DNA of 64,000 nt from Pirellulales bacterium (GTDB taxonomy: Bacteria; Planctomycetota; Planctomycetia; Pirellulales; UBA1268), in assembly GCA_016779265.1 (NCBI GenBank), contig JADHNY010000009.1, positions 1,517 to 65,516 of the forward strand, read 5' to 3'. Below, one piece after another: positions 30,169 to 59,434 of the stretch (position 1 is the stretch's first letter; each line of letters begins with the position of its first letter). The position numbers and the translations under genes are program-made. The notes beneath the pieces were generated by a model. That model did no database searches. It was not told the DNA's origin and saw only the letters and a list, made by a program, of their open reading frames with translations.

Positions 30169-30336
30169 CAACCTGTCTCCTCCCGACGGCAGCCCAGAGA
30201 ATCGTCGGAACATCTGTTGGAAAACTGCCGCTGGGCCTACGATACCCGAGATTCCATGAACTCGCCCCCTCATACCCTCCCGGCCGCGTCGGCAGGTAGA
30301 GGAGGCGGTCAGCCGCCCCAAAACGAGACTGAAGCG

Positions 30337-39030: not shown

Positions 39031-40125
39031 TCAATCGAGAATGGGCAGGAGCGGCTCCGACACAGGCTGCGGACGGACTGGCTGCGGCGGGGCAGTAGGC
39101 ACGCCACCGTCGTTCGATCCAAAGACCATCAGCCGCGCGGTGGCCAGCATGCCCCGCAGCGAGCCGAGCGATGCCTCGACGGCGGCCGGCTCGTAGCCGC
39201 AGTGCACCATGCAATCGGCACACTTGGGATTCCCACTGGCACGGCCATACGCATCCCAGTCAGTCTCTTCCATCAGTTCGCGGAAGGACGACACATACCC
39301 CTCGTCGAGCAGATAGCAGGGCTTCTGCCAGCCGAAGAGGTTGTAGGTTGGCGTGCCCCAAGGCAGGCACTCTAGGTCCCAGGCACCCTTGAGAAACTCA
39401 AGGAACACCGGCGACTGATTAAACTTCCAGCTTCGCTTGGCCTTTCCCAGGATGCGGCGAAACAGACTCTCGGCATCATCACGGGCCAGAAAATGCTCCT
39501 GGTCCGGAGCCTTCGCATAGGAGTAGCCCGGCGAAACCATCATTCCTTCGACACCGAGGGCCATCACCTGATCGAAGAAGCTGCGGTACTTCTCGGGCGG
39601 AGCATCGGCAAACAGGGTGGAGTTCGTGGTCACCCGGAAGCCCGCCTCGCGAGCAGCTCGAATCGCAGAAACCGCCATCTCATAGACGCCCTCACGGCAG
39701 ACAGCCGCATCGTGAATCTCACGTGGACCATCGAGATGCACAGAAAAGGCGAGATACTTTGAAGGCTGAAAGCGATCGAGCATCTCCTCGAGCTTCAAGG
39801 CGTTGGTGCAGAGATAGAGATATCGCTTGCGAGCCACGATGCCCTTAACAATGTCCACAATCTGAGGATGCAGCAGTGGCTCACCTCCGGGGATCGAAAC
39901 GACCGGCGCGCCGCACTCGTCCACGGCTCCCAGGCAATCGTCCACCGAGAGGTGCCGTCGCAGGATATCGTTGGGGTGCTGAATCTTTCCGCATCCCGCG
40001 CAGGCGAGGTTGCAGCGAAACAGAGGCTCCAGCATCAGCACGAGCGGATACCGTTTATTCCCTGCCAGCTTCTGCGAGAACACATGCCGCAGCACAGCGG
40101 CCATCTGGCCGAACGGAACTCCCAT
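39031..40125 (-). CDS. hpnH: adenosylhopane synthase (radical SAM)
   Basis: LMLEPLFRCNLACAGCGKIQ, GGEPLLH, WQKPCYLL, CADCMVHCGYE; 1-nt overlap with shc. Confidence 0.95.
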   Translation of the reverse strand: MGVPFGQMAAVLRHVFSQKLAGNKRYPLVLMLEPLFRCNLACAGCGKIQHPNDILRRHLSVDDCLGAVDECGAPVVSIPGGEPLLHPQIVDIVKGIVARKRYLYLCTNALKLEEMLDRFQPSKYLAFSVHLDGPREIHDAAVCREGVYEMAVSAIRAAREAGFRVTTNSTLFADAPPEKYRSFFDQVMALGVEGMMVSPGYSYAKAPDQEHFLARDDAESLFRRILGKAKRSWKFNQSPVFLEFLKGAWDLECLPWGTPTYNLFGWQKPCYLLDEGYVSSFRELMEETDWDAYGRASGNPKCADCMVHCGYEPAAVEASLGSLRGMLATARLMVFGSNDGGVPTAPPQPVRPQPVSEPLLPILD

Positions 40126-42365
40126 CAGACTGTCTCCTGTTCGGACAAGGTCATCGCTTCCCGGAACTTCGTGGCGAAGTTCGCCTCCCCGTCTGCCAGG
40201 TCATCAGAGAGCGTGCGGGCGAGGGATTGGAGCGGAAAGTAGATCGGATAGTAGTGGTACCGAAGGTAGAAGACCTTCGGGAAACCTGTGCCGGTAAACG
40301 CCGTCTCGTGCCAGCTGCCATCGTCCTGCTGTTCCCGCACGAGCCAGGCCAGCCCGCGTCGGCATGCATCAGACTCTGACCGGTTGGCAGCCGCGAGGCC
40401 GGCGACTGCCCACGCTGTCTGTGAAGCCGTTACCTCACCTCGGCCAGCCCAACATGGATCTTCGTAGCTGCGTGGCGATTCCCCCCAGCCACCATCTGCC
40501 TGCTGGCACGACTCCAGCCAATCGATAGCACGAGTGATCAGCGGATCACTTGCCTCCACGCCGATCGAACGCAGCCCTTCAATGACCTGCCAGGTGCCGT
40601 AGAGGTAGTTCACACCCCACCGGCCAAACCAGCTGCCGTTCGACTCCTGGCACTGCCGAAGATATGCCACCGCCCGGTCGACGACAGGGTGTCCTGGCCG
40701 CAGCCCGACCTGCCCAACCGCCTCCAAGACACGCCCGGCAAGGTCGGGCGAACTCGGGTCGATCATCGCATTGTGATCGGCGAAGGGAACCTTACACAGC
40801 AGTTCCATCGTGTTGTCACGATCGAAAGCTCCCCAGCCGCCATCGGAGTTTTGCATCGCGCCGAGCCACTCGGTGGCCCTGGGCAGGCAGGCCGCAATCC
40901 GAGCCAGCCGCTCTGCGACTGCGGGCTGCAGATGAATCTTCAAACGCCGGCAGGCATGCCGGTAGTCAGAGAGGGCGAGCACGACCATCGCCGTGTCATC
41001 AACATCTGGGTAGAAGCGATTCGCATACTCAAAGCACCACGCTGCCGGGGCCGCCTTGACCTGTTCACTCCAGTCACCCGGTGTGCGAATCTCTCGCTCG
41101 AGCAGCCAGTCAACAGCTCGCGCCAGGTGAGCATGCTCCACAGCTCCCTCCAGCCGCGTCGACTGACAGAGTGCCCGTATCGTGATCGCTGTATCCCAGA
41201 CCGGTGAATGACACGGCTCAAGCCGTGTCGAGCCATCCGGCTCATGCTCCACCAGTCGCTGCAGCCGCTCCCAAGCCCGCGAGACCTCGGGGGATTCGTC
41301 GGAGTAGCCAAGGCATTTCAGTGCAATGATGCTCCACACCATTGGCGGGAAGATGGCTCCCAGGCCATCACTGTCGACGCACCGCTCCAGCATCCACTGC
41401 TCACACGCAGCGACAGCCCTCCGCCGCAGCGGCATCAGCCCAAGCGACTCGCACCACTTGATGCCCACATCCACAACACGGAAAAACTTCTCCCAGCCCC
41501 GAGCACGCACGCGTGGTGCCGCGTGGTGGCCTTCAGTGAAGAGTTCGGCGATGCCGCGTTCGGCCGGGACCTGCCGCTGTGGCTTATAGGTCCACATCAG
41601 TGACAAAGGCACAATCATCGTTCGCGACCAGGCCGACACACTGTGCAGGTTGATCGCCGACCATTTCGGCAGGAGCACGATCTCCGGAGGCACAGCCGGG
41701 CAGGCCGAGTAGGGCATCTGGCCGAGGAGCGCGAGATAGTACCTCGTGAAGCTGTTTACAGCCCACGGCCCTCCGAGCACACGAATCGCCTCTCGGGCCC
41801 GCTGCATGGCTGGCTCATCGGGTGAGTGACCGGCCAGCTTAAGCACCAGGTAGGCCTTGACCGTAGCGCTCACTTCGGCAGGTCCGCCCGGGTAAATCGG
41901 CCAGCCACCGTCAGGAAGCTGCAAGGACCTGATTCGCTGCAGAGCACCGGCGACCTCCGGCCGATCGAAGCGATCCAGCCAGGCTAAGAGCAGGAGGTAC
42001 TCTGTCTCAAGGATCGTGTCGCCCTCAAGCGCCGCCCGCCAGTGACCATCTGCATGCTGACGCGTGAGCAGCCAGTCAGTCACCCGACGAACGGCCACCT
42101 CACGAGCGGCATCGCTCGGGCCCAGTTGCGACTCCACCACAACGTCAGACGAGGTGTCCGTCGTCTTGGTCAGAAACGCCTCGCTCAGCCGCAGGCCACG
42201 ATGGGGCCGCGTCATCACTGCGGCAGGGAGGCGTCCTTCCACGACGCGACGGCCTGTCGGCATCCGATCCGTCGCATCATCGCTGCGAACGCATCCCGGA
42301 CCCGATGAAACATCCATGTCTCTTTTCCCGTTTCCAACGGCGATTCTGGCAGCAGGCGTGTCCAT
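40125..42365 (-). CDS. shc: squalene-hopene cyclase (true start probably downstream of 42365)
   Basis: YPDVDDTA catalytic motif, SPVWDTA, QW repeats (QNSDGGW, QESNGSW, QQADGGW), FTGTGFP. Confidence 0.96.
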   Translation of the reverse strand: MDTPAARIAVGNGKRDMDVSSGPGCVRSDDATDRMPTGRRVVEGRLPAAVMTRPHRGLRLSEAFLTKTTDTSSDVVVESQLGPSDAAREVAVRRVTDWLLTRQHADGHWRAALEGDTILETEYLLLLAWLDRFDRPEVAGALQRIRSLQLPDGGWPIYPGGPAEVSATVKAYLVLKLAGHSPDEPAMQRAREAIRVLGGPWAVNSFTRYYLALLGQMPYSACPAVPPEIVLLPKWSAINLHSVSAWSRTMIVPLSLMWTYKPQRQVPAERGIAELFTEGHHAAPRVRARGWEKFFRVVDVGIKWCESLGLMPLRRRAVAACEQWMLERCVDSDGLGAIFPPMVWSIIALKCLGYSDESPEVSRAWERLQRLVEHEPDGSTRLEPCHSPVWDTAITIRALCQSTRLEGAVEHAHLARAVDWLLEREIRTPGDWSEQVKAAPAAWCFEYANRFYPDVDDTAMVVLALSDYRHACRRLKIHLQPAVAERLARIAACLPRATEWLGAMQNSDGGWGAFDRDNTMELLCKVPFADHNAMIDPSSPDLAGRVLEAVGQVGLRPGHPVVDRAVAYLRQCQESNGSWFGRWGVNYLYGTWQVIEGLRSIGVEASDPLITRAIDWLESCQQADGGWGESPRSYEDPCWAGRGEVTASQTAWAVAGLAAANRSESDACRRGLAWLVREQQDDGSWHETAFTGTGFPKVFYLRYHYYPIYFPLQSLARTLSDDLADGEANFATKFREAMTLSEQETV

Positions 42366-42580: not shown

Positions 42581-43843
42581 CTACGTCTCGGCGAGAGGAT
42601 TCTTCGCCGACCCCATCACCTCACCAGGCTGTTCGGCTGGCAACACGAGCCGAACGGAAGTCCCTTGCTCAGAACCTGACACGAGTTCCATGCGTCCTCC
42701 ACAGGCCCGAGCGAGAGCCCATGCGTGCGAAAGCCCCACGCCCAAGCCGCGGCCCGCCTCACGTCCACAGTGAAAGGGATCAAAGACAACGGGCAGATCC
42801 TCTCGATCGATCCCGGGGCCGTCATCCTTCACCAGAATCGCCTGCAGCCCATCCTCTGAACTCGCGGCCAGCGAAACGGTGACCGTGCCAGCCTTCTGGG
42901 CAGCCTCAATGGCATTGAGAATCACTGCATGCAACGCCTCTGCAACCAGCTTGGGGTCCACCCAGCCCCAGACAGCGTCTGCTGGCACATCGCTTCGCAG
43001 CGTGAGCCCTTCGCCACCAGGCCGCTCACCGAGCGAACCAATCACCGACTCCACCAATGCAGCCAGGTCGACGCGTGCCGGCCTCGCGACCGGTGGCTTG
43101 GCGAAGACCATCAGCCCCCCGATCATGTCTCGGGCACGAAAGGCCTGGTCGACGATGGTTGCGAGCTTCCGGCGGCGTTGTGGATCCGGCTCATCTCTCA
43201 GCAGCGACTGGCCTCGCGTCGCGATATTGGCCAGAGGGTTGTTGATTTCGTGCCCGGCGCCGTAGGCCAACTGCCGCACTGCCTCCAGCCGTGCATCGGC
43301 CAACGCTGCATCAAACCGTTCACGAAGCCCAAGGTGCTCGCGAAGCAGCCGAACAGCAGCGACGAGCAGTTCTGCTTCTGCCCGCCGATCCGCAGCAAGA
43401 GCCGCCAGCCGAAGGTCGCGACCAAATCGTGTCAGCAGATGCTCACCTCGACTGCGTCGGCCAGGGGATGTGTCGGCCTGACCACCAGCGTCATGCTCGC
43501 CAACCGCCGTCAGCCACCGCTCAACCGCACACGCTGGAACGCCCAGATCCGCGACTGCCACCGCCAACGCATGCTGCAGGGAAAAGCCACCCTCGGGACG
43601 CCACGCAGTCAACGCGGCAGCCACAGCGACACACTCTGCTGTCGTGAGCTCAGCATGCTCAATCGGCAACTCACGCCCACCTGGCGGAGCTACCTCCCCA
43701 GGCGAGCGACACGCACCGCCCGGCACTGCCGCCACAGACGAGGCACCTTTCGAGGAGTCATCAAAAGACATGGTGCTCGAGGGCTCTTTCGAACCCCCGA
43801 GCACCAGCCAGGCACCCGTTGTTTCATCAGCGTGCTGCGTCAC
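42581..43843 (-). CDS. cytoplasmic histidine kinase (start uncertain)
   Basis: GAGHEINNPL, NAIEA, DDGPGI, FDPF, GRGLGVGL; no clear TM segment. Confidence 0.88.
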   Translation of the reverse strand: MTQHADETTGAWLVLGGSKEPSSTMSFDDSSKGASSVAAVPGGACRSPGEVAPPGGRELPIEHAELTTAECVAVAAALTAWRPEGGFSLQHALAVAVADLGVPACAVERWLTAVGEHDAGGQADTSPGRRSRGEHLLTRFGRDLRLAALAADRRAEAELLVAAVRLLREHLGLRERFDAALADARLEAVRQLAYGAGHEINNPLANIATRGQSLLRDEPDPQRRRKLATIVDQAFRARDMIGGLMVFAKPPVARPARVDLAALVESVIGSLGERPGGEGLTLRSDVPADAVWGWVDPKLVAEALHAVILNAIEAAQKAGTVTVSLAASSEDGLQAILVKDDGPGIDREDLPVVFDPFHCGREAGRGLGVGLSHAWALARACGGRMELVSGSEQGTSVRLVLPAEQPGEVMGSAKNPLAET

Positions 43844-43902: not shown

Positions 43903-44490
43903 TCAGCCCCCGGCAGCCACCGATTCGATATCGAGCAGGCTGCAGATGCGATCGAGGAGCACCTCGCCCTCGAAGGGCTTCTGCAGAAACTCATTCGCAC
44001 CCGACAACTTGAGGTCCTCAATACGATCCGGCTCACACATGCCCGAGATGCAGATGATCCGCACTTCGTCCATCGTGGAGTCGCTTCGCACACGTTGGCA
44101 AACCTCTTTGCCGTTGATATCGGGCAGCATGACGTCCAACACAATCAGGTCAGGACGATATTCCTTCACCATCATGCCGGCATCAAAGCCGTTATTCACA
44201 CTTCGCACCTCGAAGCGGCCATCCCGCTCCAGCACGTCGGTGATCAGTTCCACCAGATCCTGGTCATCATCAACGACGAGGATCTTTCGCCGACCGCTCT
44301 CGAGCGCATCGGTTGGGATTCCGTTGTCACGCATGAACAGAAACAGCTGATCCCGAGGAATCCGGCGAAACCGGCTCCCTGGAACACGAAATCCCTTCAG
44401 CTGTCCTGAGTCGAAGCAGCGAATGATTGTCTGCTGGCTGACCTTGCAGATCTTCGCCGCTTCGCCGGTTGTGTACACGGTCTTTTGCAT
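43903..44490 (-). CDS. response regulator with N-terminal excisionase/MerR-like HTH and C-terminal REC domain
   Basis: YTTGEAAKICKVSQQTIIRCFDSGQLKGFRVPGSRFRRIP, then ILVVDDD...LDVMLP...KPF. Confidence 0.92.
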   Translation of the reverse strand: MQKTVYTTGEAAKICKVSQQTIIRCFDSGQLKGFRVPGSRFRRIPRDQLFLFMRDNGIPTDALESGRRKILVVDDDQDLVELITDVLERDGRFEVRSVNNGFDAGMMVKEYRPDLIVLDVMLPDINGKEVCQRVRSDSTMDEVRIICISGMCEPDRIEDLKLSGANEFLQKPFEGEVLLDRICSLLDIESVAAGG

Positions 44491-45018
44491 CTGCCGAACC
44501 ACCCTCTCCCTAGCTGTGGTATCGCTAGTCTCTACGGCACGCTGACAGAAAACGGCTGACGGCAAACCTGCCGCCATTCCCAACCACCGACACCCGGCAG
44601 TCGAGGGCTCCGTGATTCCTCAGCGTGTCTAGGCCTCCTTGTTGCCCAATGACACTGTTTCCCACGCGAACGCGGTGAAACCTGCCATACCGACGCTACG
44701 CCCATCATGGTGCAGAACTCCACACCAGTGAGGACAACCGGAAGAGATGGGTGGGCGTGGTCAGCGAAGGGACTCCTTTTCCCTTTCGCAACAATCGTTG
44801 CCGACTGCCAAGCTTGCCATCCTTGCCAGGCTGGCGGGAATATAGCGCAGCTTACGCAACGAGTCAACATCAACATAGTTGACGCAACTGCTGTCTGCGC
44901 AACAGTTTGCGCAATAAGCATGAATGCCCCGCAATACCCCGGTCGCCGCCTTCTCGACCGTAAGGGCATGCGTTGACCATGCTGGCGACGCAGCGTTTCT
45001 GCCTCGCCAATGAGCCTT

Positions 45019-45606
45019 TTAGCCCGCAAAAGACGGCACGACCTCAAGCAGTTCGACGGCAGGCCGGCCGTCGAGTCGGATTTCAGCAACGCGGCCATAC
45101 GTCGGCTGCTTTGCCTTCATCAGCTCAGCAAACGCAGTCCCAGGCGTGAGTTCAAGCAGCTGCACAGCCTGCACGTCACGATGCACTCCAGAGGCGATCA
45201 AGATTCGCCCCAGAGGCTCCTCCTTGCTCAGGATGGCCTCACGGGAGGCCGCCGGCAGGGGAGAGAGGTCGATCCGCACGATCCCGTACTGCACCACCGT
45301 ACCATCAGCACGGGAAAGCAGAATTTCTCGGGCATAGCTGCCGGCGTTCGCACCGGCAGGCTCCGTCGTCCCCTCAGCAACCACGGTCAGGTAAACAGGG
45401 CCGCCGTGATACCGCTCCATCGCCACCGTCATATGGCTGTTGTGTGCCAGCAGTCCGGCATAGGGCTCTGGCACCCGCTCGGCATCAACTTCACGCAGCC
45501 CAGCGAAGTTCTCTTCCTTGCCGTGAAACAGCGAGATCAGGCTCTCGGCTCTGCACACCGCGTGGCCTGTGGACGAGAAAGCTTGAGCTGAAGACGGGTC
45601 GGCCAT
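45019..45606 (-). CDS. chorismate lyase (UbiC/DUF98)-like protein
   Basis: LL.H..HMT..ME, YAREILL, EPLGRIL, YGR pattern of the chorismate-lyase fold; fold recognised by eye only. Confidence 0.6.
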   Translation of the reverse strand: MADPSSAQAFSSTGHAVCRAESLISLFHGKEENFAGLREVDAERVPEPYAGLLAHNSHMTVAMERYHGGPVYLTVVAEGTTEPAGANAGSYAREILLSRADGTVVQYGIVRIDLSPLPAASREAILSKEEPLGRILIASGVHRDVQAVQLLELTPGTAFAELMKAKQPTYGRVAEIRLDGRPAVELLEVVPSFAG

Positions 45607-45701
45607 GGCTGGCTCCGGGGGGAGGAACGAACCCCGGCCAGTGTACCCGCTCTGTCTTCCGCCGCCTCGGCTGATCACAGGGGTCTGACACTGAAAACGA
45701 C

Positions 45702-47564
45702 TTACCCCGGCGACCCTTGCTCAGGCGCTGCAAGATCGAGCAAAAACTCCAGCACATCCCGCAAGCGAGGTAGGCAACACGTCGCCGCGGCCCGCAGGGC
45801 TTGCTGGCGATGCTCGCAGACCATCGCCTCCGCTGCGGCGAACACCTCCGCTTTCTCATAGAGACCGCGTGCCTCACGAAGTCGCATGCCCTCCTGCTGC
45901 AGGTCACTCGACGTCGAGGCTTGCGAGAGCGTCAGCAACCGCTGGCGATCTGGTTCTGAGAGCCGCTCCATCGCCGTTGCCCACAGCACTGTCGGCCGGC
46001 CACCAAGCAGATCCCCGGCAACCTGCCGGAGGTTTTCCAGATCACCGTGCCAGTCTTTGAGGTCATTGAGAACCTGGAAGGCAGTGCCCACATGCAGGGC
46101 GTAGTTCTCAATCTGGCCCGCCTGCTCCGGATCGCACCCGGCAAGCCGCACTCCCATTTCCAGTGCGGCCGCGAACGCAGGCGAGGTCTTGAGCCCATAG
46201 ATCTCCAGGGCCTCACGCGGACTGAGCCGCTTCTCCTGAGCATCCCTCCACCAGAGTTCGGCACCTTGGCCGCGAGCCAGTTCCAGATGAGCCCGGGACA
46301 GAATCGCCAGCAGATCCCGCGGCAATGCCAGATCGCTCCCCGGATCGTCCGCCACGTTTGGCAGACCGGCGATCACCCGATACCCAAGACCGATCAGGTA
46401 GTCACCCGCATTGATCGCCGTCGGCACACCGAACTCACGATGCATCGTGGGCCTGCCGTACCGCATCGCGTCATCGTCTTCGATGTCGTCGTGAACAAGC
46501 GAGGCCTTGTGGAAAACCTCGATCGCTGTCGCCGCAGCCCTCGCCACCCCCCGGTTGGCCTTCGCGTGCGTTCGCACAGCACGTTGAGCCTCGACATCGG
46601 CTGACACCGCATCGAACGCGGCCAAGGCCATAAACGGCCTGAGGAACTTCCCTCCTTTGGCAAGAAAGTCGATGCCCAAGACACTCGTGGCCGCAGCCGC
46701 GGAGGTGGTGCCGTGATCGCTCAAGCAGGCGGCTTCAGCGCTGACGACACCGATCTTCCCAAAGAGCTTCGCCAGTGACTCCCGCGTAAACATCTCAGCC
46801 GATTCACGAAGAAGCGGCAGATGGTCAGCCACTGGCGACACCGCGCCGCCGGCAACACCGAGCAGCCCAAGCACCCATTCTGCATCGACCTGTTCGACCG
46901 CGCAGCCGTTGTGCGAGCCAGCCTCCGTGTTGACTGGTACCGCCGCAATCGGCATCGCGAAGGGCGGGAGCAGCGAAAACGCTTTTTCCAGTTCCTCAAG
47001 CGTGGCCACGCCCAGCACGCTGTCGTAGCGACCTCCGAGCATGCCTGCGATAGCCACTGCCGCCTCACGAGTGCTCGCCACCTGCCAGCCAGAGTCGTCT
47101 GCGGCAGAGGCAAGCGTTGCATAGACACATTGCGGACCACAGGTCCGTGGAGTTCCCACCGTGTCAACAGAAGCCCCACAGCAGTCGGGCAGCAGCAGCA
47201 ACCGACGACCACCAGGCGTGGTGAGCTGATCTCGCCAGTATGCCGTCACCAAAGCCACCATCGTCCAGCCAACATGCTCGGGACGTCCGCCGGCCCGGCG
47301 TACCACATCCCCGGCAGCAGCCCTCAGGCCCGCCGGTGTAGACACCTCTTGGGGAAGTGCTTCTGCCCGCCAGACCGCGGCGACGTCCGCTGAAATCGCA
47401 TGCAACCGGTCACGAAGCATCTTCGGCTGCGGCACCCGCACGGCAGCGGGATCATGGGGGGCAGCATCGTCGGACGTCGAACTCAGCGATGGCTTCGGGC
47501 TGCGTAGCGGCACACCGCCTGTTGGGTCAGAAAATCGATCGAGATGCGAGGCAGGCTGCTGCAC
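45702..47564 (-). CDS. trans-polyprenyl diphosphate synthase fused to an N-terminal DUF116-like Cys domain
   Basis: GGKFLRP, EVFHKASLVHDDIEDDDAMRYGRPT, AINAGD, GQ, KT, FQVLNDLKD; N-terminal RRLLLLPDCC...CGPQC; GTG start with GGAG upstream. Confidence 0.85.
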   Translation of the reverse strand: MQQPASHLDRFSDPTGGVPLRSPKPSLSSTSDDAAPHDPAAVRVPQPKMLRDRLHAISADVAAVWRAEALPQEVSTPAGLRAAAGDVVRRAGGRPEHVGWTMVALVTAYWRDQLTTPGGRRLLLLPDCCGASVDTVGTPRTCGPQCVYATLASAADDSGWQVASTREAAVAIAGMLGGRYDSVLGVATLEELEKAFSLLPPFAMPIAAVPVNTEAGSHNGCAVEQVDAEWVLGLLGVAGGAVSPVADHLPLLRESAEMFTRESLAKLFGKIGVVSAEAACLSDHGTTSAAAATSVLGIDFLAKGGKFLRPFMALAAFDAVSADVEAQRAVRTHAKANRGVARAAATAIEVFHKASLVHDDIEDDDAMRYGRPTMHREFGVPTAINAGDYLIGLGYRVIAGLPNVADDPGSDLALPRDLLAILSRAHLELARGQGAELWWRDAQEKRLSPREALEIYGLKTSPAFAAALEMGVRLAGCDPEQAGQIENYALHVGTAFQVLNDLKDWHGDLENLRQVAGDLLGGRPTVLWATAMERLSEPDRQRLLTLSQASTSSDLQQEGMRLREARGLYEKAEVFAAAEAMVCEHRQQALRAAATCCLPRLRDVLEFLLDLAAPEQGSPG

Positions 47565-47787
47565 GTGGCATTCTCCGTCGGTGTGTCCTGAGGCAGGCGA
47601 CTGAATGCCCTTCGCAGCCAGCGACCGTGCTCTCAGAGAGAACCGCAGATCTGCGGCCGTGGTAACACCGCAACGCCTTCGGAATCCGCAGAACCGTGGC
47701 ACTCGGTGTTGGGCCTGTTCATCGGAAGAAAGCAATGCCGCCCGAGAGCCGGAATCCGCCCAGCATCGCCGGCGAGCGACCGCTTTC

Positions 47788-49089
47788 TCAGGAGGCCGCC
47801 GTCTGCTCTTGCGGGGGGGAAGGCTCGAAGAAGCGGTGCAGCAGGCTGTCGACCTGCAAGAGCCCCTGCCGCGTCAGCCGGGGCACTCCGTCAGTGACCG
47901 TCAGATGCCCTTCCTTCTCAAGCCCCCGCCAGATGTCAGTCCACTCTGTGAGCAGATCGACGCCAAACTTCTCCCGCAGGCGAGAAACGTCCAGCCAGCC
48001 ACGCTTGAGCTGCAGAATCATCTCACGGATCAGCCGTTCACGCGGAGCAGGCGTCATCCCGCGAGCGATCGGCAGTGTCCCAGCTTCAACCGCTTCCAGG
48101 TAGGCATCCCAGTGCGGCTCATTCTGGTAGTGCAGCCCCGAGAGGTGCCCAAAGCTCGCCACGCCGAGCGCGATTAGGTCGCTGCCTTCCCAGAGCATGT
48201 CGCGATACCGGAAGGCAACCCGGGAGGGATCCTTGACCAGGGTGTAGCCGCTGGAGACGGCGTATCCTGCGTCCTCAAATCGACGAAATGCTCGGTCGAC
48301 CCAGGCCCGCTTCGTCGGCCAATCAGCAACCGGCGCTGGCACGCCGCTTTCTTTCCAGTCGTGGACGAGCGTGGTGTTCAGCGGCAGTTCCATCTGATAG
48401 ATGGTCACGCTGTCAGGCGCCAGCTCAAGGGTCTTGCTCACAGTCGCATCCCACGACTCGTCGGTTTCTCCCACCATGCCAGCGATCAGGTCGACGTTGG
48501 TGTTGGGAAAACCAGCCGCGGCAATCCAGTCCCAGGCACGCATGATCTCAGCAGAGAGGTGTGCCCGGCCATTGGCCTGCAGAATATCGTCGTCGAAGTT
48601 CTCCACGCCGAGCGAAATACGGGTCATTCCCAGTTTTCGCAGGGCCTTGACCTTCGGCTCCGACAGCGTTCCCGGCTCACACTCGAATGTGACTTCCTCA
48701 GCGTTGTCCCAACCGAAGCTGTTGTTCAGTCCATCTACCAACCGCTCCAGCTGCCGCACGCTGAGAAACGATGGAGTGCCGCCTCCAAAGTACACGTACT
48801 TCAGTTCGCGGCCAGCCACCGCAGGGCTCGCGGCGGCAAGCTCCGCCTCTTTGACCAGCCCCTGCGTGTACCGCTCGACGTCGCCGGCGGCCTTGTCGGT
48901 GTAGACCCGGAAGTAGCAGAACTTGCACCGTTTGCGACAGAACGGGATGTGCAGGTAGAGCCCGAGCGGTACGTGGGCGGGCGGTGCCGCAAATGCCGCC
49001 CGCACCGCAGACACCGAGTCGGTGTTCCAGCGATCAAACGGTGGGTAGTTGGAGACAAAATAACTTCCGGGTTCGGTTGTCTCGCTCAT
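47788..49089 (-). CDS. HemN-like (class C-type) radical SAM enzyme of unknown function
   Basis: YLHIPFCRKRCKFCYF, YFGGGTPS, TRISLGV, NVDLIAG; N-terminus GSYFVSNYPPF; GAGGAG RBS. Confidence 0.9.
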   Translation of the reverse strand: MSETTEPGSYFVSNYPPFDRWNTDSVSAVRAAFAAPPAHVPLGLYLHIPFCRKRCKFCYFRVYTDKAAGDVERYTQGLVKEAELAAASPAVAGRELKYVYFGGGTPSFLSVRQLERLVDGLNNSFGWDNAEEVTFECEPGTLSEPKVKALRKLGMTRISLGVENFDDDILQANGRAHLSAEIMRAWDWIAAAGFPNTNVDLIAGMVGETDESWDATVSKTLELAPDSVTIYQMELPLNTTLVHDWKESGVPAPVADWPTKRAWVDRAFRRFEDAGYAVSSGYTLVKDPSRVAFRYRDMLWEGSDLIALGVASFGHLSGLHYQNEPHWDAYLEAVEAGTLPIARGMTPAPRERLIREMILQLKRGWLDVSRLREKFGVDLLTEWTDIWRGLEKEGHLTVTDGVPRLTRQGLLQVDSLLHRFFEPSPPQEQTAAS

Positions 49090-49163
49090 GGCTCTCCTCA
49101 AACACCGCTTGTCCGTCGATCGCCGGCTGTCGTCGGCTTGAAAACGGTCGCCAGCACCATGCC

Positions 49164-50201
49164 TCAGCCTGCGGTCATCCCGCGAGCAGCTAGCAGGTCA
49201 TCAAAATCACGCAGGTGGTACGACACATTCGCCTTGTCGAGCACTCGGCACAGGCCTCGCAGGGCGATCCCCATGCCGTCTGGGCCGCTCGTGCCGCCAA
49301 ACTGACCGCCCCCACGCACGTGAGGCTCCAGGTCGACAAACACGCCGGGAATACCTCGTCGCTGCAGCCGTTTCTGCAAAGAAGGCAGCATGGTTTTGAG
49401 ATCGGCAAAAATCTTCGCATGGTTTGCCGAACCGCGGTCAGCCGGCACAAAGTTGCTCAGAGCGTCTTCATCGACATGGCCGCCCTTCGCGTTCTTGCTG
49501 CCAGCAGGCCGCTTTGGCGACCGATAATCCTTCACGTGCACCCAGCCCAGGCCGGGCTTCATCGCCTCCCACTGCTTGTAGACCTCAGCGGGCGAGAAGC
49601 CCTGCACAATGAGGTTGGCCGCGTCGAACACAAGCACCAGTGCAGGGTTGTTCACCCGGCGATGAATCTCAGCAAGCAGATGGCCGGTGCGGCCGATCAG
49701 ATTGGCCTCCACTTCAAGGCCGAAGGTCAGATCGGAGCGATGACAGGCATCGGTGATCTGACCGATTTGATCGACGGCCTGTTCGAGATAGTCCTCAGGA
49801 TTGGCATCACGCGGTGGATAGAACGAGAAGCCGCGAATGAGCTTTGTCTCAAACGCGTGTGCTCGCTCGCAGGCTTTGACGACATCCTTGGCGAGATACT
49901 TCTTGAAAGGCACGTAGCGATTCGACGTGCCATCCTCGACGTCAACGAGCTTCACCTTGCCGATCGGCGAAGCGATCGACGCAACGTTCAGGCCGTAGGT
50001 GTCTTCGAGGTGTCGCAGCTCCTGGATTTCTCGCAGCGTGAGATCCATCACGTTTTTCACGCCGCGGCCAAGGTCAACGAACCGCAGGCTGTAGTATTCG
50101 AGCCCGAGTGCGGCCAGCGCCGAGAACTGCTCGACAGCGGTGAGATGAAACGCAGCCTCATCGGCGAGGGCAGAGAGCAGGATTCCACGCGACGTGGCCA
50201 T
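49164..50201 (-). CDS. xylose isomerase-like / AP-endonuclease-2 TIM-barrel metalloenzyme
   Basis: SALADE, ASPIGK, IRGFSFY, LEVE, FDAAN, VHVKD, LEPH metal-ligand pattern. Confidence 0.82.
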   Translation of the reverse strand: MATSRGILLSALADEAAFHLTAVEQFSALAALGLEYYSLRFVDLGRGVKNVMDLTLREIQELRHLEDTYGLNVASIASPIGKVKLVDVEDGTSNRYVPFKKYLAKDVVKACERAHAFETKLIRGFSFYPPRDANPEDYLEQAVDQIGQITDACHRSDLTFGLEVEANLIGRTGHLLAEIHRRVNNPALVLVFDAANLIVQGFSPAEVYKQWEAMKPGLGWVHVKDYRSPKRPAGSKNAKGGHVDEDALSNFVPADRGSANHAKIFADLKTMLPSLQKRLQRRGIPGVFVDLEPHVRGGGQFGGTSGPDGMGIALRGLCRVLDKANVSYHLRDFDDLLAARGMTAG

Positions 50202-50442
50202 TGATTTCTCCAAGGAAGCACGATCAGCAAGTCAAGCAGCGGCAAGAGCCTTGTGTGGCTCCACCGAAGGTGAACATCCTGCCAAAGCAGTACCACCGAC
50301 GTGGGTGGCTCACCCGAAACCGAACACAAGCAGGCAATCCCAGCGCTCCTCTGGTGCACGCGTCTGCCTGCCTCGGGAAAACGCGACCGTCCAGCTTCAG
50401 CATATTGTGGGCCGGGTTGGGGTGTTCTTCAACTGTGACAGC

Positions 50443-50847
50443 TTACGCCGTTGGCCCGAGCGGATCTCCAGCAGGGTGTGACACGAGCAGTTTGGAAGAG
50501 ACCCCACCTCGAGGCGTAAAGACCGCAAGCAGAGTCATCTTCCTCGGCGTGACCACCGCCATCAGATCGTCAAAGATCCGATTGGAGACATGCTCGTAGA
50601 AAATTCCCTGATTGCGAAACGACTGCAGATAGAACTTGAGGCTCTTCAGTTCGACGCACAGTCGATCGGGGACATACCGAAACGTCAGGCATCCGAAGTC
50701 AGGCTGTCCCGTCTTCGGGCAGACCGACGTAAACTCCGGACAGACGATCTCGATCTGATAGTCACGATCGGGAAACTGATTTTCGAACGTCTCCAGCAGG
50801 CTCCGATCAGGGCCTGAGGCGATGTGATCTGAAAAAATGTTGCTCAT
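50443..50847 (-). CDS. queF: preQ0 reductase, monomodular type
   Basis: [34 protein letters not shown]; start at 50847 or 50856. Confidence 0.95.
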
Positions 50848-50862
50848 GCGAGGCATTGTGCC

Positions 50863-51597
50863 ATGACGTCTGCTGCGAAAGAAGATGGGCCTCCCGCCCC
50901 ACTGAAGACCGCGGTTGTTTTGCTCTCGGGCGGCCTCGACTCCACCACCGCGGCCGCCTGGGCGGCCAGCCAGGGCTGGAGGTTGGCTGCACTCTCGGTG
51001 GACTACGGACAGCGGCACCGGGTTGAACTCGACTGCAGTCGCAGAGTCGCCGCATCCCTCGGAATCACAGATCACGTGATCCTCACGATCGACCTCGCTG
51101 CCTTCGGGGGTAGCAGCCTGACCGACTCTTCAGACACGGTACCGAAAGGCCGCACCGCCCACGCGATCGGCGAAGGCATTCCCTCCACCTATGTACCGGC
51201 CCGCAACACGGTACTGCTGTCTCTCGCCCTCGCCATGGCAGAGACGAGGCAGGCTGAAGCGATCGTGATTGGTGTCAACGCACTCGACTACAGCGGCTAC
51301 CCGGACTGTCGCCCCGAGTTCATTGACGCGTACAGAAAACTCGCCGCACTCGCCACTAAGGTGGGTGTGGAGGGCAACCCGATCGACATCCTTGCCCCAC
51401 TGCAACACCTCACCAAAGCGGAGATCATCCGCCTCGGCTGCTCACTCGGCGTCGACTACGGCCAGACCACCAGCTGCTACGATCCGCATGCCGATGGACG
51501 CCCCTGCGGCAGCTGCGATGCCTGCCTGCTGCGTGCCAACGGCTTCGCAGCTGTAGGGGTGCGTGATCCCGCGGTCACACCACGTGTTGAAGACTGA
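50863..51597 (+). CDS. queC: 7-cyano-7-deazaguanine synthase
   Basis: [37 protein letters not shown]...CGSCDAC. Confidence 0.97.
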
Positions 51598-51608
51598 GGA
51601 GCTCCGCG

Positions 51609-52319
51609 GTGAAGGTTGCCGAACTCTACCGGTCGCTCCAGGGCGAGGGCCTCCTCGCAGGCACACCGAGCACATTCCTCAGAACCAGCGGTTGTAATCT
51701 CCGCTGCCGCTGGTGCGACACTCCGTTCACGTCCTGGGAGCCCACCGGTGACGAACGTTCTGTCGGCGAGGTCGTTGAGGAGATCGCTGCGCTGGGCTGC
51801 CGGCATGTGGTGGTCACCGGCGGTGAGCCCCTGCTGTTTGTGGAGGTGATGCGGGTCTGCGAGCAGCTGCGAGCAACTGGCGAGCATGTCACGATCGAAA
51901 CTGCTGGCACCGTGTTGCCGCCGGAGATTCCTGCCGCTGAGCTCGCGGACCTCTTCTCGATCAGCCCGAAACTCGCCTCCTCTGCACCGCCGCCCGACAC
52001 GCCAGGAGACTGGCACCGACGACACGAAGCCGCCCGCCGCCGAGATGACATCGTCGCCACCTTGCTTACCGCGGCCAACTATCAGCTGAAGTTTGTGATC
52101 GACCGCCGAGACGACCTCGACGAGGTCCAGCAGTGGCTCAACGACATTGATCGGCAAGTCCATGTCGACCGCAGTCGTGTGTTCCTGATGCCTCAGGGCG
52201 TTCGCGAAGACGACCTGGCCGAGACGGCCCGCTGGCTTCAGCCCGCCTGCCAGGCCCACGGCTTTCGATTCGCTCCGCGGCACCACCTCAGCTGGTACGG
52301 CCACACCCGCGGCACCTGA
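51609..52319 (+). CDS. queE: 7-carboxy-7-deazaguanine synthase (radical SAM)
   Basis: SLQGEG, RTSGCNLRCRWCDT, TGGEP, IETAG, SISPK, LKFV. Confidence 0.94.
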   Translation: MKVAELYRSLQGEGLLAGTPSTFLRTSGCNLRCRWCDTPFTSWEPTGDERSVGEVVEEIAALGCRHVVVTGGEPLLFVEVMRVCEQLRATGEHVTIETAGTVLPPEIPAAELADLFSISPKLASSAPPPDTPGDWHRRHEAARRRDDIVATLLTAANYQLKFVIDRRDDLDEVQQWLNDIDRQVHVDRSRVFLMPQGVREDDLAETARWLQPACQAHGFRFAPRHHLSWYGHTRGT

Positions 52320-52334: not shown

Positions 52335-53402
52335 TTAGGCCGGCTTCGGCTTGGCATGACCACGCGGCCCAAACACGAGCACGGTCGCAGCTCCCACGGC
52401 GACAACGAGCAGGCCCGCGTAGAAGATCGGGCTGATCGCCGACATCGACGTGCCGCTGGTCACGAGGGAAACGAGCGTGTTGATCACCGGTGCGAGGCCA
52501 AACACGACCGGCATCACGGTGAACGGCTTGCCGCCGAAGTTGAAGGCGAGCACGATCCCCAAGGCACCCATCGCCCCAAGTGCACCGCCAGCGAGGCTCC
52601 AGATGCTCCCGGTCACATCCCAGGTGCCTGTGTCACCCATCGGCCCGATCAACGCGAGCGGCACGAGTACCGCGATCAAAAAGTACGACACGCCAATGCA
52701 GATCAGCGGCCGCAGACGGCTGCCACCCATCGCCGACTGCCCCTTGTGCAGCACCGAACCGTAGGCTCCCCAGCACGTCAGAGCCATCACTGTCGACAAC
52801 AGGATTTCCAAAAAGCGTTCACTTCCCGCTTGAGCGGCCGCCACCAGCGAGGGCTTCGGCTCTTCTGCAGCCTCGTTCGCAGCCTCCCCGTCGGCAGCTT
52901 CCGTCTCAGCAACTCCAGCTGCCACGACCTCAGGCTTGGGCTGAGGCTGTGGCTTAAAGACGAGCACGGTCACCGCCCCAGAGATCACCAGGATCAGTCC
53001 GGCGAGGAAAGGAGCCTTGATCTGATTAAAGGCGTTGTTCATCGCTGCAGTCAGCAGCGTATTGACGACTGGCGCACCGCCAAACACCAGCGGCATCACA
53101 TAGATCGGCTTTCCGCCAAACGACAAAGCCAGGATCACACCGAGCGCTCCCACCGCCCCCGCTGCTCCGGAGAACAGGCTCCAGGCCACGCCCGTCGTCG
53201 TCCATGCCCCCTTCTCGCCGGTCCGAAACAAGACGGCCAGCGGAGCCAGGACGGCGATCACAAAGTAGGACACGCCCACGCAGACAAACGGCCGCAGTGC
53301 CGAGTGCATCAGTTCGCGGCCGTGGTGAAGCGTTGGGCCATACATGCCCCAGCAGGCAGCGGTCATGGCAATCGCGGCGAGCATGCCAACGAGACCCATC
53401 AT
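52335..53402 (-). CDS. internally duplicated multi-TM protein, DMT/EamA-like
   Basis: Two homologous halves (CWG.YG..LH.G...LRP..C.GVSYF.IAVL.P...GGKP..VMP.VFG.APV.NTL) joined by an acidic linker; AAGGA RBS. Confidence 0.78.
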   Translation of the reverse strand: MMGLVGMLAAIAMTAACWGMYGPTLHHGRELMHSALRPFVCVGVSYFVIAVLAPLAVLFRTGEKGAWTTTGVAWSLFSGAAGAVGALGVILALSFGGKPIYVMPLVFGGAPVVNTLLTAAMNNAFNQIKAPFLAGLILVISGAVTVLVFKPQPQPKPEVVAAGVAETEAADGEAANEAAEEPKPSLVAAAQAGSERFLEILLSTVMALTCWGAYGSVLHKGQSAMGGSRLRPLICIGVSYFLIAVLVPLALIGPMGDTGTWDVTGSIWSLAGGALGAMGALGIVLAFNFGGKPFTVMPVVFGLAPVINTLVSLVTSGTSMSAISPIFYAGLLVVAVGAATVLVFGPRGHAKPKPA

Positions 53403-53499: not shown

Positions 53500-54600
53500 T
53501 CAGGCGACCCGCGACACCGTCGGGGCCGCTGCAAGCTGCAGCATCGCCTGCCCCACATCTTCAACGGAAAGCAGCCGCATGCAATCGTGGTGGCCAAGTG
53601 GGCAGGTCCGCCGGCCACACGGGGAGCAGGGAAGGTCTCGCCGCATTTCCAGCAGTGACGCATGTTCGGAGCGACTCAGCCGAGGATCCATCGGGCCGTG
53701 CAGGACAATCGTGGGGCGATCAAAGGCGGCCGCAATATGCCGGGGACCACTATCGGTGCTAACCACCACAGTGGCTCGGCGGATCACCGCTTTGGCGAGG
53801 CCGAAGGGAAGATCGTCCTCCTCGGCGAGGCTGGCCACATGCGGTGAGCCTGCCAGCGACACGAGTTTTCTCGCCTCATCTCGGTCGCCCGGGCCACAGT
53901 GGACCAGCACCCGGGCCCCAGGCATGCGTTTTAGAGCGAAGCCCGCCAGGGCGGCAAATCGCTCGGTGCCCCACGACTTCGCAGGCCCATAGGCACCGTT
54001 ATCGTTGAAGACCACCAGCGGTCCATCGGTGCCCGCATTCCAGCCAGGGAAGCACCTCTGCAGCACGGCTTCGCCGAGCGCCTCATCCTCCTGGGTTGTG
54101 GCCAGTTCGAGACGCAGCGGGCCTGGCGGCACTCCCAGACGCTCAGCAAGCCTCATGGCATGCTCCGCCGTTGATGCTGGCTCGATTCGCAGGCCTTGCC
54201 TGGGTGGGGCGAGGGGATCGGTCAGAAGCCACCGTCGCCAGTGGCGGGCGATGCCAATCCGCCGCTTGCCTCTGGCTGCAAAAGCGAGCATGCCTGACGA
54301 GAGTGAGTTCGGCACGAGCAGGATCGCATCGGGCCGATCTTCACGGAGCTGGCGAGCAACAGCCCGAAAACGGTGTTCAGGCCGACGGCTGCGACGATCG
54401 TAGGGCAACACCCTGTCGAGCCATCCAGTGCCCTCAAGCAGACCGGCCAGCGGCGGCTTCATCACGCCGGTGATCCGCGTATGACCAGCGGCTCGCGACT
54501 CGGCAAAGTGCTCGGCGAGCGACCGCAGCATCGGGGTACTCATCACAAGATCGCCAACCCAGCGGGGCAAGACGACAACAATGTGGGCGGGAGCAGTCAT
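53500..54600 (-). CDS. waaF: GT9 glycosyltransferase, LPS heptosyltransferase II-like
   Basis: PRWVGDLVMSTP, GAYGPAKSW, STDSGPRHIAAA, CSPC....CPLGHHDCM. Confidence 0.85.
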   Translation of the reverse strand: MTAPAHIVVVLPRWVGDLVMSTPMLRSLAEHFAESRAAGHTRITGVMKPPLAGLLEGTGWLDRVLPYDRRSRRPEHRFRAVARQLREDRPDAILLVPNSLSSGMLAFAARGKRRIGIARHWRRWLLTDPLAPPRQGLRIEPASTAEHAMRLAERLGVPPGPLRLELATTQEDEALGEAVLQRCFPGWNAGTDGPLVVFNDNGAYGPAKSWGTERFAALAGFALKRMPGARVLVHCGPGDRDEARKLVSLAGSPHVASLAEEDDLPFGLAKAVIRRATVVVSTDSGPRHIAAAFDRPTIVLHGPMDPRLSRSEHASLLEMRRDLPCSPCGRRTCPLGHHDCMRLLSVEDVGQAMLQLAAAPTVSRVA

Positions 54601-58936: not shown

Positions 58937-59434
58937 TCAGCTGGAAGCCACTTGTTCGTCGGCTGGAAACGAGTAGCGAGCCAGTGTGGCGGCGATCTCC
59001 TCGGGTACCGGAACCCCCTGCAGTCGCTGGCCTTCCCCGTGTTGCACCCGACATCGGACCGTCACCACACGTCCGGTGGCCACAAGTCGCCCTTCGTGCG
59101 TAAAGCGAAAGCGGTAGGTCACGCTCTTGCCGCCGACCCGTTCCACGCCCGCCTCGATATCGATCACATCGCCGAAGCGAATCGCAGATGCGTAGTCACA
59201 GGAGACAGAGACCCGAGGCCAGCTTTCGATTGAGCCGTCGGGTCTCTCGTCCATGACCGCAATGCCCGCATCCCGCAGCAGTTCATGCTCCACAGACTCC
59301 ATCCAAAGCATGAATGAAGAAAAGTGGACAATCCCTGCAGCGTCAGAATCGACAAACTCCACGCGACGACGCGTCTTCAATGGCGATGGCGTGGAGGAAC
59401 CCACAGGCGACTCGTCGGTAGGACAGTTCTTCAA
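58937..59434 (-). CDS. 4HBT/YbgC-family hot-dog thioesterase
   Basis: RVEFVDSDAAGIVHFS...ME, WPRV...CDY. Confidence 0.88.
   Translation of the reverse strand: MKNCPTDESPVGSSTPSPLKTRRRVEFVDSDAAGIVHFSSFMLWMESVEHELLRDAGIAVMDERPDGSIESWPRVSVSCDYASAIRFGDVIDIEAGVERVGGKSVTYRFRFTHEGRLVATGRVVTVRCRVQHGEGQRLQGVPVPEEIAATLARYSFPADEQVASS

Follow-up and report, generated by a model that had tools for sequence, protein, structure and literature searches.

Four proteins are encoded side by side on the minus strand at 45019-50201 of a 64,000-nucleotide stretch (the window) of contig JADHNY010000009.1, which belongs to a metagenome-assembled genome (3.9 Mb, 190 contigs) of a Pirellulales bacterium. They are a xylose-isomerase-like TIM barrel, a HemN-like radical S-adenosylmethionine (SAM) enzyme (HemNl), a fusion of a DUF116-like domain with a polyprenyl synthase (D116PPS) and a UbiC-like protein (UbiCl). 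Do these genes form one pathway, and if not, with which partners does each of them work? A first-pass annotation had read them as a single isoprenoid-tailoring unit that could yield a prenylated aromatic compound, a quinone or a radical-modified lipid. The open reading frame listing and our family scans verified the four co-oriented genes as well as their domain types, in the case of UbiCl at the level of fold and profile. With the start codons adopted here, the gaps, previously given as about 75, 220 and 95 bp, measure 74 bp (TIM barrel to HemNl), 223 bp (HemNl to D116PPS) and 95 bp (D116PPS to UbiCl).

49164-50201, minus strand: TIM barrel, xylose-isomerase-like (PF01261); ATG at residue 5 of the open reading frame 49164-50213
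47788-49089, minus strand: HemNl, HemN-like radical SAM enzyme (PF04055); ATG at residue 5 of the open reading frame 47788-49101
45702-47564, minus strand: D116PPS, DUF116-like/polyprenyl synthase fusion (PF00348); GTG start
45019-45606, minus strand: UbiCl, UbiC-like protein of 195 amino acids; ATG at residue 25 of the open reading frame 45019-45678

The longest open reading frame of D116PPS extends to 47735; upstream of the adopted GTG at 47564 stands a GGAG, 8 nt away from it.

The comparison of genomes described below answers the first part of the question in the negative: the four genes are a family-specific juxtaposition and not a conserved unit. Their most conserved link is the HemNl-UbiCl pair, and the usual partner of D116PPS is a cyclase that resembles squalene-hopene cyclase (SHC-like). 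As to the second part, HemNl, D116PPS and UbiCl may be modules of an uncharacterised, phylum-wide network for terpenoid or meroterpenoid envelope lipids that is tied to SHC-like cyclases, a reading to which we give an even chance. Besides these three proteins, the members of the putative network are an SHC-like class II terpene cyclase, an alpha-alpha-toroid prenyltransferase-like protein, a SPASM-type radical SAM enzyme, a ferredoxin-like protein, a CobW GTPase, a GcvH-like protein, a flavin halogenase/hydroxylase-like protein, a PaaK-like ligase, a hotdog thioesterase, glycosyltransferases, an EamA-like protein and a MacB-type ABC/FtsX exporter.

Linkage across the phylum

For co-localisation we used one fixed set of 300 further genomes from the phylum, each at least 85% complete; counts out of 301 include the window's genome. 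UbiCl was matched in 47, HemNl in 59, D116PPS-type fusions in 76, the FtsX permease in 95 and the TIM barrel in 21 of the 301 genomes. UbiCl is fast-evolving, and the single-query search may miss copies of it. HemNl is present in 45 of the 46 other genomes with UbiCl, the exception being a weak match (E 5e-4), and in 29 of these 45 genomes, spread over 9 families, no more than 1 kb separates the two genes. The FtsX permease occurs in 57 of 58 genomes with HemNl and in 72 of 75 with D116PPS, and lies within 15 kb of the former in 21/57 and of the latter in 9/72. Among 12 loci taken from the remaining families of the order, UbiCl adjoins D116PPS in ten cases, an SHC-like gene precedes D116PPS in eight, HemNl is found within 10 kb in three and the TIM barrel within 10 kb in none; D116PPS and UbiCl are also adjacent in the genomes G213, G218 and G318. 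When loci were chosen by their D116PPS match alone, an SHC-like gene was clustered in 14 of 16, and five run on into ABC-FtsX. The linkage of HemNl and UbiCl is real and non-random, D116PPS is linked to SHC-like cyclases, and both are linked to one ABC/FtsX exporter.

The family of the window's genome is the only place where all four genes were found together. Order and strand, from the TIM barrel through HemNl and D116PPS to UbiCl, are kept in 8/8 loci of this family; since the entire 20-kb block is syntenic, unrelated queuosine genes included, the four-gene order within the family is uninformative. The genes that follow the four, encoding a response regulator, a histidine kinase, SHC and HpnH, are all present in 7/8 of these loci, the eighth contig ending after the response regulator, and this synteny is absent from the 12 loci of the order's other families. 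Elsewhere in the sample, the TIM barrel lies within 15 kb of HemNl, UbiCl, D116PPS or FtsX in 0 of the 19-20 other genomes with both. The proposed unit is thus corrected by removal of the TIM barrel. The first-pass annotation had also suggested that such groupings recur in Planctomycetota and Verrucomicrobiota, sometimes near large FtsX-type permeases, and had made the co-localisation of homologues a point on which the proposal should be judged. For the radical SAM enzyme, the prenyl synthase and the UbiC-like protein the recurrence in Planctomycetota stands, with HemNl-UbiCl as its broadest and D116PPS-UbiCl as a mainly Pirellulales component; the TIM barrel has no part in it. As to Verrucomicrobiota, the one lead is given by the ESM Atlas clusters near UbiCl that are described below.

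Gene orders outside the family extend both links. Several other classes share the order HemNl-UbiCl-flavin halogenase-like-GT4-4HBT thioesterase-EamA-like-PaaK-like ligase-ABC-FtsX, in which the gene after UbiCl matches the CmlS model with 203 bits, and genome G206 has ABC-FtsX-HemNl-UbiCl. Clusters around D116PPS come in two types. Those of type A read (CobW, Fer4, radical SAM)-SHC-like-D116PPS-(toroid prenyltransferase-like)-ABC-FtsX-beta-propeller, and those of type B read GcvH-like-CobW-SPASM-type radical SAM-Fer4-D116PPS-toroid-SHC-like. Type B includes a seven-gene cluster on contig C92 of the window's own genome, which four or more further families have kept:

10037-18953 of contig C92 (locus L041): GcvH-like protein, CobW GTPase, SPASM-type radical SAM enzyme, ferredoxin-like protein, D116PPS with canonical motifs, toroid protein, SHC-like cyclase

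The two sets of genes meet in several genomes. In G218, HemNl-GcvH-Fer4-SHC-like-D116PPS-UbiCl stand on one strand; in G222, a type B set is divergent from HemNl-UbiCl with 1.7 kb between them; in G260, the halogenase-like gene, HemNl and 4HBT lie beside a type B set; and in G213, SHC-like-D116PPS-UbiCl is followed by toroid-ABC-FtsX. The window's own genome has the network in separate places. Within the window lie HemNl, a type A D116PPS and UbiCl, together with a 4HBT-ABC-FtsX-GT9-EamA-like exporter set 5-10 kb upstream; the only SHC-like gene of the genome lies on C92, and the orthologues of the halogenase-like, GT4 and PaaK-like genes are found on contigs C98, C117 and C23, respectively.

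A further set of four genes, encoding an AMP-binding fragment, an aldehyde dehydrogenase, an Fe-alcohol dehydrogenase and a PQQ-type beta-propeller, was observed upstream of HemNl in locus L062 (11731-17358). The same four genes stand together on contig C18 of the window's genome (96928-101900), and a similar beta-propeller comes after FtsX in type A clusters.

The SHC-like cyclases give these linkages their wider interest. The SHC-like clade of the group of Planctomycetes, Verrucomicrobia and Chlamydiae is described in the accessible text of a 2025 study as sister to the epoxy-polyprenyl meroterpenoid cyclases and as being of undemonstrated function (PMC12414744; Mol Biol Evol 2025). An earlier paper states, in the sections available, that the planctomycete proteins keep the critical catalytic residues, and takes their gene surroundings to point to some precursor different from squalene (Santana-Molina et al. 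2020, PMC7306690). From what both sources make accessible, these cyclases have no known product despite their kept catalytic residues (PMC7306690, PMC12414744). Since polycyclic terpenoids leave molecular fossils, an unknown bacterial class of them matters for the rock record as well as for the planctomycete envelope. The network names partners for this question, namely a prenyl synthase with an altered second aspartate-rich motif, a HemN-like radical SAM enzyme, a chorismate-lyase relative and a MacB-type exporter. The SHC-like genes found here beside D116PPS and UbiCl and on C92 fit the described clade in being divergent from SHC while keeping DxDD: SHC-like proteins are 23-28% identical to true SHC, and the C92 protein, which keeps DADDTS at this motif, shares 40-48% identity with the ones that other genomes have next to D116PPS/UbiCl. 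The window itself, in contrast, is without an SHC-like cyclase of that clade and has an orthologue of the synthase that usually accompanies one. Figure S10 of PMC7306690 aside, the accessible text of the two papers contains no link of the clade to HemN-like, UbiC-like or ABC/FtsX genes (PMC7306690, PMC12414744). Our literature search found no publication joining these genes; that figure, which deals with the SHC-like context, may show some of the neighbours.

Protein families of HemNl, UbiCl and D116PPS

HemNl matches the radical SAM family PF04055 with 88.2 bits and a series of HemN-type NCBIfam models, all of whose cut-offs it misses: ChuW/HutW with 185.4 bits (cut-off 400), HemN with 176.2 (324.95), STM4012 with 168.2 (380), HemW with 156.8 (205.4) and HemZ with 155.3 (321.4). 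In a whole-genome search with TIGR00538 it reached 173.4 bits, again under the cut-off. The sequence comparison with the PDB gives HemN (1olt, 122 bits) over residues 28-415, and the match to NocN (101.7 bits) covers the N-terminal half. The cysteines C51, C55 and C58 of the CxxxCxxC motif are invariant in 25 orthologues, and orthologues at 51% identity or more occur in all 59 of the 301 genomes counted above, with 51-59% identity between classes. By these scores, HemNl appears to be a subfamily outside the curated HemN, HemW, HemZ and ChuW models, as had been anticipated for the first three in the first-pass annotation. Many HemN-like proteins are class C methylases or cyclopropanases according to the accessible part of a review, which also notes that uncharacterised bacterial subclades remain and that menaquinone is methylated by class C radical SAM enzymes (Cheng et al. 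2022, PMC10114718). HemNl shares with these enzymes the full-length HemN-type architecture and CxxxCxxC, and differs in falling below every curated family cut-off. A complex prediction for HemNl with UbiCl, run without controls, scored 0.00 against a mark of 0.32, a value that has no bearing on binding either way.

The UbiCl protein of the window matches none of the Pfam or NCBIfam families. Its AlphaFold2 model (predicted local distance difference test score, pLDDT, 90.2; predicted template modelling score, pTM, 0.86) finds with Foldseek the DUF98 protein AF1396 (2nwi, E 5e-8) first and E. coli chorismate lyase (1g81/1fw9, E 3e-7 to 1e-6) close behind, followed by the effector (UTRA) domains of GntR regulators; the predicted fold is thus that of the chorismate-lyase/UTRA group. 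A profile of 30 phylum-wide UbiCl relatives aligned with E. coli UbiC by hhalign gives a probability of 86% (E 5e-6) at 29% identity over 110 columns. This alignment pairs HMT with SMT, YAREILL with WLREILL, PLGRIL with PLGRYL and YGR with WGR, and stops short of the C-terminal Glu155. Arg76, Met34 and Glu155 have functional roles in UbiC. R93, the PLG motif, G171-R172 and E188 are invariant across the 30 UbiCl relatives. Membership by Pfam gathering score failed, PF01947 being touched by only 2/30 relatives (best E 0.055), and a search of PDB sequences with the UbiCl-family profile did not retrieve UbiC, its sole match being 2mpe (E 0.78). In the ESM Atlas, UbiCl is nearest to clusters of Planctomycetota and Verrucomicrobiota, fewer than half of whose members have PF01947 or PF04345, and some close relatives bear the JGI label 'chorismate-pyruvate lyase'. 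Because of the fold matches, the UbiC profile alignment and these ESM Atlas and JGI neighbours, we regard UbiCl, at the level of predicted fold and profile, as a probable divergent member of the chorismate-lyase (UbiC/Rv2949c) superfamily. With E. coli UbiC and Rv2949c/DUF98 it shares the fold as seen by Foldseek, and the profile alignment with UbiC takes in the REILL arginine and the PLGR motif; it differs from E. coli UbiC in having no Pfam match and in not standing beside ubiA.

D116PPS consists of a degenerate DUF116-like domain (approximately 46869-47294) and a trans-polyprenyl diphosphate synthase domain (approximately 45912-46664). The synthase domain matches PF00348 with 155.5 bits; PF01976 (DUF116) reaches 24.0 bits and narrowly misses its cut-off of 25. 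No chain-length equivalog was found among the 16 listed NCBIfam models, all of which stay far under their cut-offs (the best with 133.6 bits against 450). The first aspartate-rich motif (FARM) is DDIED, followed by RYG, and DDIED is kept in 26/26 aligned clade sequences. The usual sequence after this motif is RRG, and small residues at FARM positions -4 and -5 lead to long chains. The second aspartate-rich motif (SARM) reads NDLKD and not DDxxD; NDLxD occurs in 26/26 aligned clade members and in 32 of the 39 tree rows in which the motif was read. An NDxxD motif is carried by chrysanthemyl diphosphate synthase, an irregular coupler. For that enzyme, the Asn variant 'appears to be significant' in the words of a preprint, as far as its accessible text goes (10.1101/169417). 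A quick tree assigns the window protein to a 'type A' clade with NDLKD, 'type B' paralogues keeping DDxxD. Within it, the window protein falls into a family-specific clade on a long branch, and CxxCxxC, which other DUF116 domains keep, is absent in 9/9 rows of the family. The paralogue on C92 has a DUF116 domain of 127.2 bits with the full Cys motif and a canonical DDLED.

DUF116 (COG1852) has been predicted to be a flavodoxin-like, Cys-rich electron-transfer domain, and its fusion to a polyprenyl synthetase is recorded for Psta_0175 of Pirellula staleyi in the accessible text of Makarova et al. (2015, PMC5898192). D116PPS is a fusion of this type; its DUF116 part differs in lying under the Pfam cut-off and in being without CxxCxxC, and the paper, in the portion accessible, gives no neighbourhood or pathway for bacterial fusions (PMC5898192). 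According to a figure legend in a 2025 preprint, a Bipolaricaulota isolate has a single cluster that encodes a DUF116 protein, a polyprenyl synthetase, SHC and HpnH.

In a genome of the same genus as that of the window (locus L037, G001:C6, 9588-12975), HemNl and D116PPS each read as two pieces, which suggests frameshifts due either to assembly error or to decay.

A possible route to an envelope lipid and its competitors

On the network reading, a route can be sketched in five steps. The synthase domain of D116PPS would make a polyprenyl diphosphate, perhaps of long chain as the small residues at -4/-5 before the FARM suggest, and with altered or irregular coupling if NDLxD in the SARM and RYG are taken as a guide. 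UbiCl would supply an aromatic acid, e.g. 4-hydroxybenzoate from chorismate, and HemNl, like a class C radical SAM methylase, would modify an sp2 carbon, either in the ring or in the prenyl chain. The SHC-like cyclase would then close rings, after which the product would be glycosylated and taken to the envelope by ABC/FtsX. In its full form, the proposal is that HemNl, UbiCl, D116PPS, the SHC-like cyclase and ABC/FtsX jointly produce and export (mero)terpenoid envelope lipids of a new class in Planctomycetota, cyclised and tailored by radical SAM chemistry; these lipids would then be what the SHC-like cyclases make. The synthase (NDxxD, RYG) would couple in a non-canonical manner, and the radical SAM steps would receive electrons or a carrier arm from DUF116 and from the ferredoxin-like, CobW and GcvH-like proteins. 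For this full form our confidence is low, and we put it forward tentatively. Compared with what is known, the kind of system is that of a terpenoid/meroterpenoid gene cluster, and its enzyme subfamilies fall outside assigned ones. The nearest precedents are the MstE and Lon15 (longestin) meroterpenoid pathways, which follow the same logic of aromatic acid head, head-to-tail polyprenyl chain and class II cyclase according to the accessible text of PMC12414744. They differ in that no UbiA- or ABBA-type aromatic prenyltransferase is clustered with the planctomycete genes in the genomes examined, and in that, as far as that source describes them, they hold no counterpart of its radical SAM, DUF116, CobW, GcvH-like and exporter genes.

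Several points weigh against the network reading. Its functional claims are drawn from gene neighbourhood and family likeness. In the phylum sample, D116PPS and UbiCl lie within 1 kb in only 3/36 genomes with both, and D116PPS and HemNl in 0/47; because of these counts, the three-way link rests on a minority of lineages. The counts themselves were obtained with three candidates per genome scored for D116PPS and two for FtsX, related genomes in the sample are not independent, and the nestedness of the gene sets may largely reflect one large clade that has all the genes. The role of D116PPS in the family of the window may moreover differ from that of its orthologues, because the DUF116 Cys motif is lost and the branch is long. 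The weakest point of the reading lies in the joining of ring and chain: a UbiA-type prenyltransferase was found near none of the clusters examined in the window's genome and five others, so that this step is without a candidate save the toroid protein.

A last point of this kind comes from transcription. Part of the stretch is contained in 16 runs recorded as RNA, and transcription was read from metatranscriptome contigs of four of them (X1-X4), which cannot prove a single transcript. RNA-library contigs cover all four genes and bridge UbiCl-D116PPS in X1 and X4, HemNl-TIM barrel in X1, X2 and X4, and D116PPS-HemNl in X1 only. X1 and X2 show flat cover over all 30 bins and may contain DNA. In X3 and X4 cover is uneven, the response regulator and D116PPS being higher than HemNl and the TIM barrel; the parts uncovered in these two runs (histidine kinase, queC/queE and most of FtsX) are not readable as silence. 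Contigs of X3 and X4 break off within the 223-bp gap, at 47595 and 47610 (31-46 nt upstream of the D116PPS GTG), which hints weakly at two transcription units with a separate start for the D116PPS-UbiCl pair. A scan of 44400-50700 for promoters and terminators returned one promoter-like and five terminator-like sites, the number expected from shuffles.

The same linkage counts can be read without any isoprenoid. HemNl, UbiCl and the flavin halogenase-like protein could produce a small tailored hydroxybenzoate, i.e. a halogenated or methylated acid of BaaA/BaaB type or a compound derived from an aryl-CoA, and in this family rearrangement would have placed the synthase between HemNl and UbiCl; we consider this rather unlikely. 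In the planctomycete strain 10988, the chorismate-lyase-like BaaA adjoins the flavin halogenase BaaB, and the pair is proposed, in the accessible text of the report, to make a brominated hydroxybenzoate, its published role being in the making of 3,5-dibromo-p-anisic acid (Panter et al. 2019, bioRxiv 10.1101/723874). The pairing of a UbiC-like with a flavin halogenase-like gene is what we find after HemNl in other classes, where UbiCl is followed by the CmlS-like flavoenzyme, the PaaK-like ligase and the 4HBT thioesterase; HemNl and UbiCl, furthermore, are mostly adjacent without the synthase (29/45, vs 3/36 for D116PPS-UbiCl). On the other side, the authors themselves state that the BaaA/BaaB proposal is without a knockout (10.1101/723874, accessible text). 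Independent orders place D116PPS or an SHC-like gene by UbiCl or HemNl, in Pirellulales as well as in f98, f29 and f100, the ABC/FtsX neighbour is common to both sets of genes, and the HemNl-UbiCl pair is kept across 9 families, unlike a strain-specific secondary metabolite. Two differences from the published pair can be noted: the halogenase-like orthologue of the window's genome is on the separate contig C98, and the pairing is conserved together with HemNl across many families, HemNl being unmentioned in the accessible text of 10.1101/723874. These observations suggest that the BaaA/BaaB pair may itself belong to a conserved core system and not to a strain-specific secondary pathway.

HemNl could alternatively be haem-related, as an anaerobic coproporphyrinogen dehydrogenase, a HemW-type chaperone or a ChuW-type degrader, with ABC/FtsX as an HrtAB-like exporter of haem or tetrapyrroles and UbiCl as a ligand-binding partner. 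Its top NCBIfam matches, ChuW/HutW (185 bits) and HemN (176 bits), its full-length match to HemN 1olt and its high conservation between classes would fit such a role, and neither HemF nor a HemN above cut-off was found elsewhere in the window's genome. All curated cut-offs, however, are missed widely, and the genome encodes a ChdC homologue (182 bits), which implies the coproporphyrin route and makes HemN and HemF dispensable; HemNl is therefore not required as coproporphyrinogen oxidase. A second HemN-like gene of the same genome, on contig C169, could be HemW. Since, in addition, HemNl occurs in only 59/301 genomes and its neighbours (prenyl synthase, cyclase, ligase, thioesterase, glycosyltransferases) are not haem genes, we rate this alternative as improbable.

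Little probability also attaches to a family-specific four-enzyme route, in which the TIM barrel would be newly recruited, e.g. as a dehydratase or isomerase acting on a shikimate-type or sugar intermediate. What speaks for it is mostly local: the order and strand kept in all eight loci of the family, the 74-bp gap to HemNl and the bridging of this gap by RNA-library contigs in three runs; in addition, a dehydratase, AsbF, is among the structural matches given below. The 20-kb synteny with its queuosine genes deprives the first of these of weight, and the absence of the TIM barrel from the vicinity of the other three genes in all 19-20 genomes elsewhere is joined by the lack of any conserved neighbour of it in the 12 genomes examined and by genome G340, where it is present and HemNl and UbiCl were not found with these queries. 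The protein itself belongs to PF01261 (73.8 bits), with which its AlphaFold2 fold agrees (pLDDT 89.2), and carries the database label 'sugar phosphate isomerase/epimerase'; a search against PDB sequences gave 0 matches. Foldseek returns ketose 3-epimerases, UlaE, Art22 and AsbF, a 3-dehydroshikimate dehydratase at rank 18 of the structural matches, all at E values of approximately 1e-11 to 1e-12 and 13-17% identity. Because these matches score alike, no subfamily is resolved, and a role as 3-dehydroshikimate dehydratase feeding the aromatic route was dropped, as Foldseek cannot tell AsbF from sugar epimerases. The TIM barrel is best described as a local, unrelated neighbour of sugar-phosphate isomerase/epimerase type outside the conserved network.

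A respiratory quinone variant, in which the UbiC-type lyase would provide the ring, the synthase the side chain and a MqnK/MenK-type class C methylase the ring methyl group, draws on enzyme types that are all known from quinone pathways, including the methylation of menaquinone described in the accessible part of PMC10114718, and is nevertheless highly improbable, given that a UbiA-family gene is near no cluster in the window's genome and five others, that the distribution is patchy (47-76 of 301 genomes) and that the links are to cyclases, glycosyltransferases and an exporter and not to mqn or ubi genes; the quinone-type route suggested for the locus at first is thus not borne out by gene context.

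Surroundings of the locus

The genes around the four, as far as they bear on the network or were named in the first-pass annotation, are the following.

39031-40125, minus strand: hpnH (TIGR03470, 519 bits)
40125-42365, minus strand: shc, squalene-hopene cyclase (TIGR01507, 645 bits)
42581-43843, minus strand: histidine kinase, from family scans; downstream context
43903-44583, minus strand: response regulator (HTH_17 and REC), from family scans; downstream context
52335-53402, minus strand: EamA-like membrane protein, internally duplicated, named after its nearest ESM Atlas clusters
53500-54600, minus strand: GT9 glycosyltransferase (PF01075, 94 bits)
54664-58134, minus strand: FtsX-type permease, duplicated, 1156 amino acids (PF02687), forming a MacB/Lol-type transporter with the ABC ATPase
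58131-58793, minus strand: ABC ATPase partner of FtsX (PF00005)
58937-59434, minus strand: hotdog-fold thioesterase, 4HBT/YbgC-like (PF13279, 42.8 bits), just upstream of the ABC/FtsX pair
62280-63947, minus strand: 555-amino-acid protein with a weak match to the C domain of squalene-hopene cyclase (PF13243, 31.5 bits)

Both the two-component pair with shc-hpnH downstream on the same strand and the large FtsX-type permease, placed at 54.7-58.8 kb by the annotation, agree with our family scans. The thioesterase is 41% identical to the thioesterase of the L062 cluster and is an orthologue of the one in the conserved cluster of other classes. The EamA-like protein gave zero Pfam matches; the ESM Atlas clusters nearest to it are 'EamA-like transporter' clusters of Planctomycetota (score 0.96-0.97), and each of its halves matches a single protein of 150-200 amino acids from the conserved cluster of other classes. 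Homologues of the 62280-63947 protein (37-38% identity) lie near SHC-like/D116PPS/UbiCl in locus L021 and near HemNl/UbiCl in L055, and it is possible that this protein is a further member of the network.

The composition of the window is even, with a GC content of 0.60-0.65. Between the TIM barrel and the exporter set, queF (minus strand) and queC and queE (plus strand) occupy 50443-52319, the queF and queC reading frames as listed overlapping head to head at 50863-51075. The response regulator keeps 92-98% protein identity across the genera of the family, compared with 43-85% for its neighbours, which is unusually strong for a two-component regulator. Farther away, the window holds a PNP_UDP_1 phosphorylase resembling HpnG (25948-26709), an 811-amino-acid fusion of a squalene/phytoene synthase with an amine oxidase (26690-29125) and an IspH/LytB gene (30217-31275), which together with hpnH and shc make much of the window isoprenoid-related. 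The plus strand at 10796-12831 encodes a DUF3419 protein (342.8 bits) and, after it, a class I methyltransferase, a couple that we take to resemble the BtaA/BtaB pair of betaine-lipid synthesis. A small RNA-binding protein with an RRM domain (PF00076, 81.3 bits), a domain type uncommon in bacteria, is encoded on the minus strand at 60058-60492.

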